Assembly (NCBI RefSeq): GCF_024502345.1
Contig: NZ_JALDNN010000001.1
DNA length: 64,000 bases
Reading direction: 5' to 3' (one strand)
Source of the DNA: Escherichia coli
Lineage (GTDB): Bacteria > Pseudomonadota > Gammaproteobacteria > Enterobacterales > Enterobacteriaceae
The notes under the pieces are model-generated. The model had not been told where the DNA came from and made no database searches. It was given only the letters and a program-made list of their open reading frames with translations. Within the stretch, counting starts at the first letter, position 1. Every line of letters begins with the position of its first letter. The translations under genes were made by a program, and so were the position numbers. This document shows, one piece after another, positions 7,820-8,010 of this stretch.

Positions 7820-8010
7820 TGGATGTGTATCAGATCAAACAATGTGTACAGCAATGCTTAATGAAAACACGTGTATGTCTGGTAAAACACTTAGTAGAAA
7901 ATACGTGTATAACACTTACTGAAATGCTTAGTAAAAATACTTAGTAAAATATGTGTAGAATTATCTATTTAAAAAGATATGTATATAACACTTAATAAAA
8001 ACATGTGTAT
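7820..8010. repeat. Array of iteron-like imperfect direct repeats (unit approx. CACTTAGTAAAAATACGTGTATA) in an AT-rich ORF-less block
   Basis: At least 4 copies of a ~25-bp unit plus extra GTGTA cores (aatgtgtaca, acacgtgtatg, atacgtgtata, atatgtgtaga, acatgtgtata) read directly from the sequence. Confidence 0.5.

Follow-up and report, generated by a model that had tools for sequence, protein, structure and literature searches.

A direct-repeat array and adjoining core linked to an HUH endonuclease gene: a candidate bipartite cis-element of Escherichia coli chromosomal islands

We analyzed a non-coding repeat array in a chromosomal island of Escherichia coli, contained in a window of 64 kb (the whole stretch of 64,000 nucleotides studied, from contig NZ_JALDNN010000001.1), together with the nearby gene for an HUH endonuclease of the inovirus-Gp2 / YagK-YfjJ family, hereafter Gp2. 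The array is a selected element of protein-binding type, and together with a core directly to its right, which different genera have conserved, it makes up a bipartite cis-element. This element keeps a fixed orientation to the HUH gene, to which it is tied at a variable distance, and is not tied to the genes on its other side. As far as the literature searched shows, it has not been described previously, and its architecture resembles that of known origins and operators. From left to right it comprises the array, TATAGT, CCGACAT, about 100 nt of intervening sequence, a hairpin, CTCTGGAATTAT and a T-run, amounting to about 330 bp in all. The features on which the analysis relies are the following.

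6217-6948, minus strand: gene for the inovirus-Gp2 / YagK-YfjJ family HUH endonuclease, 243 amino acids, with the HUH motif HYHVILLL and the Tyr motif SYLVK
7822-8011, plus strand: direct-repeat array of two interleaved motifs, all copies on one strand
7867, 7901, 7949 and 8001, with weaker copies at 7822, 7841 and 7977, plus strand: A units, RYRYGTGTA
7857, 7890 (weaker), 7915, 7927, 7940 and 7991, plus strand: B units, CTTAnTRAAA
8010-8015, plus strand: -10-like hexamer TATAGT, overlapping the last repeat
8022-8028, plus strand: box 1, CCGACAT (CCGACATTCTCAAC in the E. coli clade), invariant across E. coli-type loci
8098-8119, plus strand: hairpin CTGCTCTG-AAAA-CAGAGCAG, a terminator-like match, with an outer stem at 8091-8095 / 8123-8127
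8124-8135, plus strand: box 2, CTCTGGAATTAT, matched once in the window and followed by a T-run (to 8139) that forms the right end of the module

A first-pass annotation of this region had proposed an iteron-like array at 7820-8010, built from a unit of about 25 bp, and our measurements bear out both the array and its extent. Between positions 7820 and 8015, 103 pairs of 12-mers share at least 10 of 12 bases, compared with 5.6 ± 4.1 in dinucleotide-preserving shuffles (n = 500; maximum 24), and the possibility that the repeats are no more frequent than in shuffled DNA does not apply. No excess of such pairs was found elsewhere in the block (47 vs 50 for 7000-7800; 21 vs 15 for 8030-8690), and a sliding profile singles out the array as its sole repeat-rich segment (99 vs 0-8). 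All four exact matches to AYRYGTGTA in the window fall inside the array on the plus strand (7867, 7901, 7949 and 8001), as do all five matches to CTTAVTRAAA (7857, 7915, 7927, 7940 and 7991; 0.55 expected), and neither motif has an exact match outside these 190 bp on either strand of the whole window. The unit proposed earlier corresponds to a composite of B and A of about 24 bp, with autocorrelation maxima at 24, 48 and 50 bp. Composites are spaced by 32, 50 and 52 bp and cores by 11-51 bp, and Tandem Repeats Finder reports a degenerate 13-bp period across 7884-7949.

Comparison of E. coli-type loci shows that the units are 86-97% identical among islands while the spacer is 44-88% identical; the conservation of the units is on par with that of coding DNA. 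Their number changes by gain or loss of whole units: across 94 such loci, A sites vary from 2 to 8 and B sites from 1 to 6, and the stretch between the left anchor TTTACTAAACTGG, used as the left marker for measuring arrays, and the TATAGT box measures 77 to 211 bp. The repeats are thus not random, and selection acts on them. One could still suppose that this is slippage-prone DNA with no specific function, perhaps a mere H-NS nucleation patch, given the low GC content (26-29% over 7800-8100), the free change in unit number and the presence of an H-NS-like gene in the island. We regard this as very improbable, since the conservation of the units equals that of coding DNA, the motifs are specific and all lie on one strand, arrays occupy the same position in four distant lineages, and the neighboring core is kept across genera. 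As a separate observation, in one locus (L024, 1440-2100) the array and core occur twice in tandem, both copies decayed and separated by about 430 bp, beside a frameshifted Gp2 (P0092).

The core that adjoins the array is the more constant half. The last A unit (8001-8009) abuts or overlaps the hexamer, which reads TATAGT in 85 of 101 loci, TATAAT in 11 and TATATT in 5; variation is thus confined to position 5, and the hexamer always lies 6-8 nt ahead of CCGACAT. A promoter scan found neither a -35 match for TATAGT nor a better promoter in the region. Despite many substitutions in between, the stretch that runs from box 1 and ends 8 nt beyond box 2 measures 122-123 nt in 45 E. coli alleles, and this fixed box-to-box spacing, unaccompanied by RNA covariation, therefore points to a constraint at the DNA level. 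E. coli, Brenneria, Providencia and one further lineage (L027) all have box 2 91-116 nt after box 1 and in the same orientation. The hairpin loop AAAA is not conserved, and box 2 sits in the 3' arm and tail of the hairpin.

The linkage to Gp2 was assessed in both directions. A pattern scan of metagenomes for the two boxes, in which loci were chosen by the core DNA pattern alone, returned 78 loci, and in all 57 of those with enough left flank a Gp2 homolog lies on the opposite strand, 737-2449 bp away. Conversely, loci fetched through the Gp2 protein mostly also have the core; a scan of the genome collection with the protein gave 2 loci only. The element is the sole conserved non-coding one tied to the Gp2 gene. 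On the other side, the right-hand neighbors differ among islands in identity and even in orientation, some being convergent. The segment 7700-8200 occurs in 1864 of 5426 complete E. coli genomes, at up to 7 places per genome, and is absent from CP4-57 and CP4-44 of K-12; E. coli O128:H27 90-9281 is one of the strains that carry it. Four of 72,556 plasmid records carry the element, all as island fragments on IncF plasmids, and no phage record does; a plasmid or phage origin is rejected on these grounds.

The array had been described as part of a single AT-rich block of 1.6 kb lacking open reading frames. Its non-coding character holds, but it does not behave as one unit, because similarity between islands stops at about 8140, with unrelated cargo beyond, and because right flanks and neighboring genes differ among islands. 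It consists instead of two modules, 6949-8140 traveling with Gp2 and 8141-8693 with the local cargo. These subdivisions were defined from an alignment of 19 homologous E. coli loci and from a 13-locus alignment spanning the whole region from Gp2 to the array.

6949-7016, minus strand: non-coding stretch with the highest conservation, immediately ahead of the Gp2 start and presumed to hold the Gp2 ribosome-binding site and promoter; mean pairwise identity 0.97-1.0 (13 loci)
7017-7700, plus strand: variable, indel-rich, A+C-rich non-coding spacer (A 40%, G 16%); gap-rich in the 13-locus alignment, where its identity is 0.44-0.88
7701-7821, plus strand: conserved flank to the left of the array, with the anchor (7810-7822) at its end; identity 0.86-0.90 with gaps ignored
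8141-8693, no strand assigned: non-coding DNA of the right-hand cargo module, from a flank family common to 31 of about 100 loci

The first 141 nt upstream of Gp2 are still 90% identical where Gp2 itself is only 54-65% identical. To the right of 8140, sequences fall into at least 6 unrelated families (38, 31, 11, 10, 4 and 1 loci). Nothing is annotated by RefSeq under 7700-8200 in the E. coli homologs listed, and the open reading frame at 7135-7308, annotated in a few genomes, is broken by loss of the start codon or by stops in 9 of 13 homologs. In 'long' variants the spacer is replaced or extended by about 1.2 kb with a reading frame of 177 amino acids, of which tblastn found no translated remnant in this block. 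A decayed gene, which had been raised as the finding that would speak against a repeat element, is rejected on these three results. Likewise, the region contains no tRNAs and gives no Rfam matches even at E<=1.

Regarding the spacer itself, we observed that 7017-7700 is strand-skewed (AT skew reaches +0.57 and GC skew falls to -0.39), and a milder depletion of G occurs upstream of the core in some distant lineages. The 177-residue frame (WP_000778605; L008 675-1205, also in L012-L014, L016 and L022) lies between Gp2 and the array, is directed toward the array, and has a weak match to the oriT-binding protein NikA as its sole match (Pfam E=0.025).

Beyond E. coli, all contigs compared for Gp2 homologs of 36-43% identity show the same layout, in which a DUF932/antirestriction/RadC/CbtA operon runs one way and, across an intergenic region, Gp2 followed by AlpA runs the other. 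Brenneria (L025), Providencia (L026) and L027, whose Gp2 proteins are 39-43% identical, keep the core in the same orientation to Gp2, with a shared pattern of TATATT, 6-8 nt, C(C/A)(G/A)ACA, 91-95 nt and CTCTGGARTTAT; Jinshanibacter (L028) has a looser version. Box 1 is kept in Providencia and in a divergent metagenome clade (L046, L056, L080 and L107; Gp2 39% identical), with same-position variants CAGACAT in L027 and CCAACA in Brenneria. The sequence between the boxes is unrelated among lineages. In three of the four lineages the TATA box is preceded by direct repeats whose sequence is specific to the lineage, and the divergent metagenome clade has CTCTATAT-type repeats. Where a lineage has arrays, they directly abut the -10 box, and arrays of differing sequence recur at this position in four distant lineages. 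The repeats found in the four named lineages are as follows.

Providencia (L026): AAACACATA, 3 copies
L027: ACTCTCTRTA, 23-bp period
Jinshanibacter (L028): 36-bp unit, five copies, containing TTAGTA and AGAGTG
Brenneria (L025): TAAAATGTGT, four copies at exactly 22 bp, located at 4293-4369, downstream of the core and immediately upstream of a gene for 323 amino acids

The product of the linked gene has an HUH nickase fold with its motifs intact. It matches the Pfam models YagK_YfjJ_C (1.3e-35) and REP_ORF2-G2P (1.3e-7) as well as PHROG replication-initiator families, and structural comparison matches it to the origin-binding nickase domains of NS1, adeno-associated virus (AAV) Rep and RepB; a sequence search of solved structures with the Gp2 profile gave no matches. 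Many Gp2 clusters (P0046-P0081) are 212-214 amino acids long and cover 80% of the query. As an additional observation, the E. coli protein carries a low-confidence insert of about 45 residues that is missing from distant homologs.

HUH nucleases each need a specific DNA site, usually beside their own gene; NS1, AAV Rep and RepB-type proteins recognize tandem direct repeats beside nick sites; and rolling-circle plasmid origins typically pair a conserved nick region with a variable bind region. Because of these properties, together with the linkage to Gp2, the deep conservation of the core, the selection on the units, the fixed box-to-box spacing and the features of the protein, the reading we place first, while giving it somewhat less than an even chance, is that the repeats are docking sites for Gp2 beside its site of action, in a layout like that of a rolling-circle origin and overlapping a rightward promoter. 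The HUH domain of Gp2 would dock cooperatively on the tandem repeats (a 'bind' locus) and then act at the adjacent conserved core (a 'nic' or initiation locus), which would lead to rolling-circle-type replication or mobilization of the excised island. Since the last repeat overlaps the -10 box, binding there would also control the rightward promoter. What would be expected of a rolling-circle system is found on two counts: the adjacent endonuclease gene has both the HUH and the catalytic Tyr motifs, and the direct repeats lie beside a separate conserved segment that relatives share while their repeats diverge. We infer the identity of the repeat-binding protein, the nicking, the nick position and the replication of the island.

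Several observations weigh against this docking role. The distance from the element to the Gp2 gene is long and variable (870 bp from the array to the nearest Gp2 start here, 245-2449 bp in relatives), and the copy number of the repeats is highly plastic between islands. Box 2 lies outside the hairpin loop, and the conserved boxes resemble no nick sequence known to us. Two loci (L021 and L024) keep the block although their Gp2 proteins (P0065 and P0092) have a frameshifted C-terminal third and no Tyr motif, and three more distant Gp2 loci on viral contigs (31-41% identity) have no array. The literature searched on the YfjJ/YagK family contains nothing on island replication or nicking. Finally, a -10 box that varies at its least constrained position and a plus-strand hairpin with T-run are better explained by transcription. 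A likeness of TATAGTATCAT / ATATTAC to the nick nonamers of circoviruses and geminiviruses was also considered and set aside, being indistinguishable from the -10 box.

The transcriptional evidence supports a second reading, to which we assign a probability nearly equal to that of Gp2 docking, the two not being mutually exclusive. In a purely transcriptional element, the repeats would be operators for an island regulator, whether a ribbon-helix-helix protein, an Xis/AlpA-like protein or another tandem-site binder, at a sigma-70 promoter (TATAGT) firing rightward at about 8022. The product would be a leader or small RNA of about 115 nt ending at the hairpin and T-run (about 8140), and read-through, if it is regulated, would extend into the downstream genes. 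Rightward transcription from about 8022 is plausible. In all lineages the -10 hexamer keeps its distance from box 1, with only position 5 varying, and the array directly abuts it in each array-bearing lineage; in Providencia about 100 nt separate the unit from the GTPase/DUF932/antirestriction operon downstream of it, an arrangement like that of a 5' leader; and operator arrays often vary in copy number. Against an operator function stand the missing -35 element, the failure to find a cognate regulator, and the changing, sometimes convergent right-hand neighbor, from which it follows that the element is not simply that gene's promoter. The ribbon-helix-helix hints are sub-threshold only and fall in a 269-residue cargo protein and in the 177-residue spacer frame, neither of which is universal. 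The earlier suggestion of clustered regulator sites accordingly survives as head-to-tail repeats beside a promoter-like core, and fails as a control region for the nearest Gp2 start, given the distances above.

The predicted transcript is less consistent. The segment 8021-8142 folds with a minimum free energy of -30.8 kcal/mol (z -3.2), and folding is good for both strands (z -3.2 and -4.05). The terminal hairpin is stabler as plus-strand than as minus-strand RNA in 13 of 16 mutually related alleles, through G.U-preserving changes, and pairing is preserved solely in the plus-strand RNA; this supports rightward transcription, as does the hairpin followed by a T-run in the window, the terminator expected of a small-RNA gene. 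The hairpin is strong in most E. coli alleles and weak or absent in several, and no hairpin is common to the remote lineages. RNAalifold consensus energies reach only -7.4 kcal/mol (16 alleles) and -2.6 kcal/mol (26 alleles), with a single compensatory pair, and a search for base-pairing targets in the window and in neighboring 5' regions gave nothing above chance. Conservation across genera is limited to two short boxes and the distance between them, an unusual pattern for a small RNA. With weak consensus folds, no covariation support and no Rfam family, the evidence does not favor a small RNA with conserved structure. The first-pass annotation also proposed a non-coding RNA promoter, an idea retained in the form of a promoter-like core and a short hairpin-terminated unit to its right.

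Two further explanations start from the repeats themselves. A partition (centromere-like) site, or a recombination-directionality-factor (AlpA/Rox-type) array serving island segregation or excision, would fit in that partition and Xis/Cox-type proteins typically bind head-to-tail repeats of 11-13 bp in AT-rich DNA, and an AlpA-family gene follows Gp2 in remote loci. This is very unlikely, given that no ParA or ParM gene lies nearby, that integrase genes and att sites all lie at a distance from the array, whose motif occurs nowhere else in the window, and that the conserved right-hand core would be left unexplained. Even less credible is a classical theta-type iteron origin with DnaA boxes, despite direct repeats in AT-rich DNA and five one-mismatch DnaA-box matches on one strand, a marginal enrichment (1.8 expected; P ~0.045). 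The region has no exact DnaA box and no iteron-binding Rep gene of the RepA, pi or TrfA type, its neighbor being an HUH nuclease. Moreover, the 12-13/24-25 bp period with spacings of 11-51 bp differs from regular units of about 22 bp (at least three iterons of 17-22 bp being expected), and the element is nearly absent from plasmids and absent from phages. What endures of the iteron proposal is an array of protein-binding type tied to an HUH gene, while period, spacing, initiator and DnaA boxes all speak against iterons of the theta type.

Comparison with known systems clarifies the resemblance to both origins and operators. The double-strand origin of pMV158-type rolling-circle plasmids combines a nic locus with a bind locus of direct repeats; here, by contrast, there is no match to a nick sequence known to us, the conserved box is outside the hairpin loop, the repeats are more numerous and variable in copy number, the gene is divergent and 0.25-2.4 kb away, and the host element is a chromosomal island for which replication is only proposed. 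Parvovirus (including AAV) and geminivirus origins similarly place tandem Rep-binding repeats beside a nick site within a divergent promoter region, but their repeats are 4-8 bp rather than 12-13 bp, their nick sites lie in defined hairpins or terminal repeats, and they belong to small viral genomes rather than islands of 20-60 kb. Plasmid iterons of R6K, F, pSC101 and RK2 share direct repeats in AT-rich DNA near a replication-type gene and differ in repeat length and spacing, in initiator family and in the exact DnaA box that is absent here.

Among operator arrays, those of omega of pSM19035, ParR/parC of R1, the MetJ boxes and the P2 Cox boxes are alike in having head-to-tail repeats of about one helical turn, in variable copy number, at a core promoter. 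The present element has head-to-tail repeats on or beside a core promoter, with the same layout in remote lineages, and differs in offering only the weak ribbon-helix-helix hints in non-universal neighbor genes. The lambda PR'-6S RNA-tR' unit and PalpB of Pseudomonas aeruginosa resemble it in sequence conservation at the start site and in an intrinsic terminator that comes about 100-200 nt after a promoter and ahead of downstream genes (PMC9371919); PalpB carries the AlpA binding element. In P. aeruginosa, AlpA is Q-like and unrelated to the 70-residue Phage_AlpA proteins of the islands, which limits the comparison to an analogy. Unlike these units, ours has yielded no pause or binding element, and its terminator is not conserved outside the E. 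coli clade.

A bolder extension of Gp2 docking, which we consider improbable, would make the element the working end of an unrecognized rolling-circle system that serves chromosomal islands. On this view, binding of Gp2/YfjJ to the repeats would be followed by nicking of the core and would drive replication or single-strand mobilization of pathogenicity and defense islands, and the loss of similarity after CTCTGGAATTAT-TTTT would reflect HUH-mediated initiation or termination joining new cargo, making it a point of cargo exchange. Published work on yfjJ, yagK and inovirus Gp2, as far as searched, holds nothing functional, and no paper found quotes these sequences. One recent preprint counts the Gp2-like gene as a likely core gene of related islands but assigns it no function (10.1101/2024.08.29.610337). 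In addition, mouse-gut isolates of E. coli Nissle show raised copy number of an integrase gene and of an inovirus-Gp2-family gene (bioRxiv 10.1101/364505), and this rise could represent excision or amplification of an island.

Islands of this type, with integrase, AlpA, YfjI/YfjJ, GTPase, DUF932, antirestriction, RadC and CbtA/CbeA genes, carry virulence and anti-phage cargo and occur in one third of complete E. coli genomes, often in several copies. A conserved and strictly linked cis-element offers a concrete candidate substrate for the orphan HUH family YfjJ/YagK. Should the element instead prove to be a promoter under regulation that yields a short terminated transcript, it would serve as the main switch ahead of a variable cargo slot. 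Under both readings its right edge delimits a cargo hotspot, a help in island annotation.

The island in the window is CP4-57-like. Rightward of the element come variable cargo and then GTPase, DUF905, DUF932, antirestriction, RadC, DUF987, CbeA/CbtA and DUF4942 genes. The cargo gene adjoining the element (8694-9503, plus strand) encodes the protein of 269 amino acids mentioned above, whose sub-threshold C-terminal matches of ribbon-helix-helix type are RepC_IncLM (0.0019), RepB-RCR_reg (0.079) and RHH_1 (0.27). Its convergent partner of 315 amino acids (9500-10447) has no matches, and PADLOC defense models gave none on the neighboring cargo.

A second YagK/YfjJ-type HUH paralog, with motifs HAHAVFW and HYLAKEEQK, lies at 31-597 on the minus strand. 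Its upstream stretch of about 0.8 kb (598-1404; 88% identical to L001 7791-8640) contains no array and no box 1/box 2 core. In L001, a second gap of 1.6 kb (7791-9387), AT-rich and free of genes, is found upstream of the other YagK/YfjJ paralog and has a strong purine skew (GC skew +0.72 at 8600-8800).

Downstream of Gp2 lie transposase fragments of the IS21, IS2/IS3 and Mutator families and a protein of 292 amino acids with an Mrr_cat restriction-endonuclease domain (these features being at 1752-2426, 3646-4125, 4733-4996 and 5011-5889), a place taken in the closest E. coli relative (L004) by ProQ/FinO, helix-turn-helix and hypothetical genes. The H-NS/StpA-like protein of the island is encoded at 2809-3249 on the minus strand (146 amino acids; StpA model 2e-12, below the curated cut-off). 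Elsewhere in the window, Rfam scores above the gathering threshold were obtained for the STnc630 small RNA (38156-38321, minus strand) and for three REP-derived naRNA4 copies (43988-44064 and 44088-44164, plus strand; 46640-46720, minus strand).

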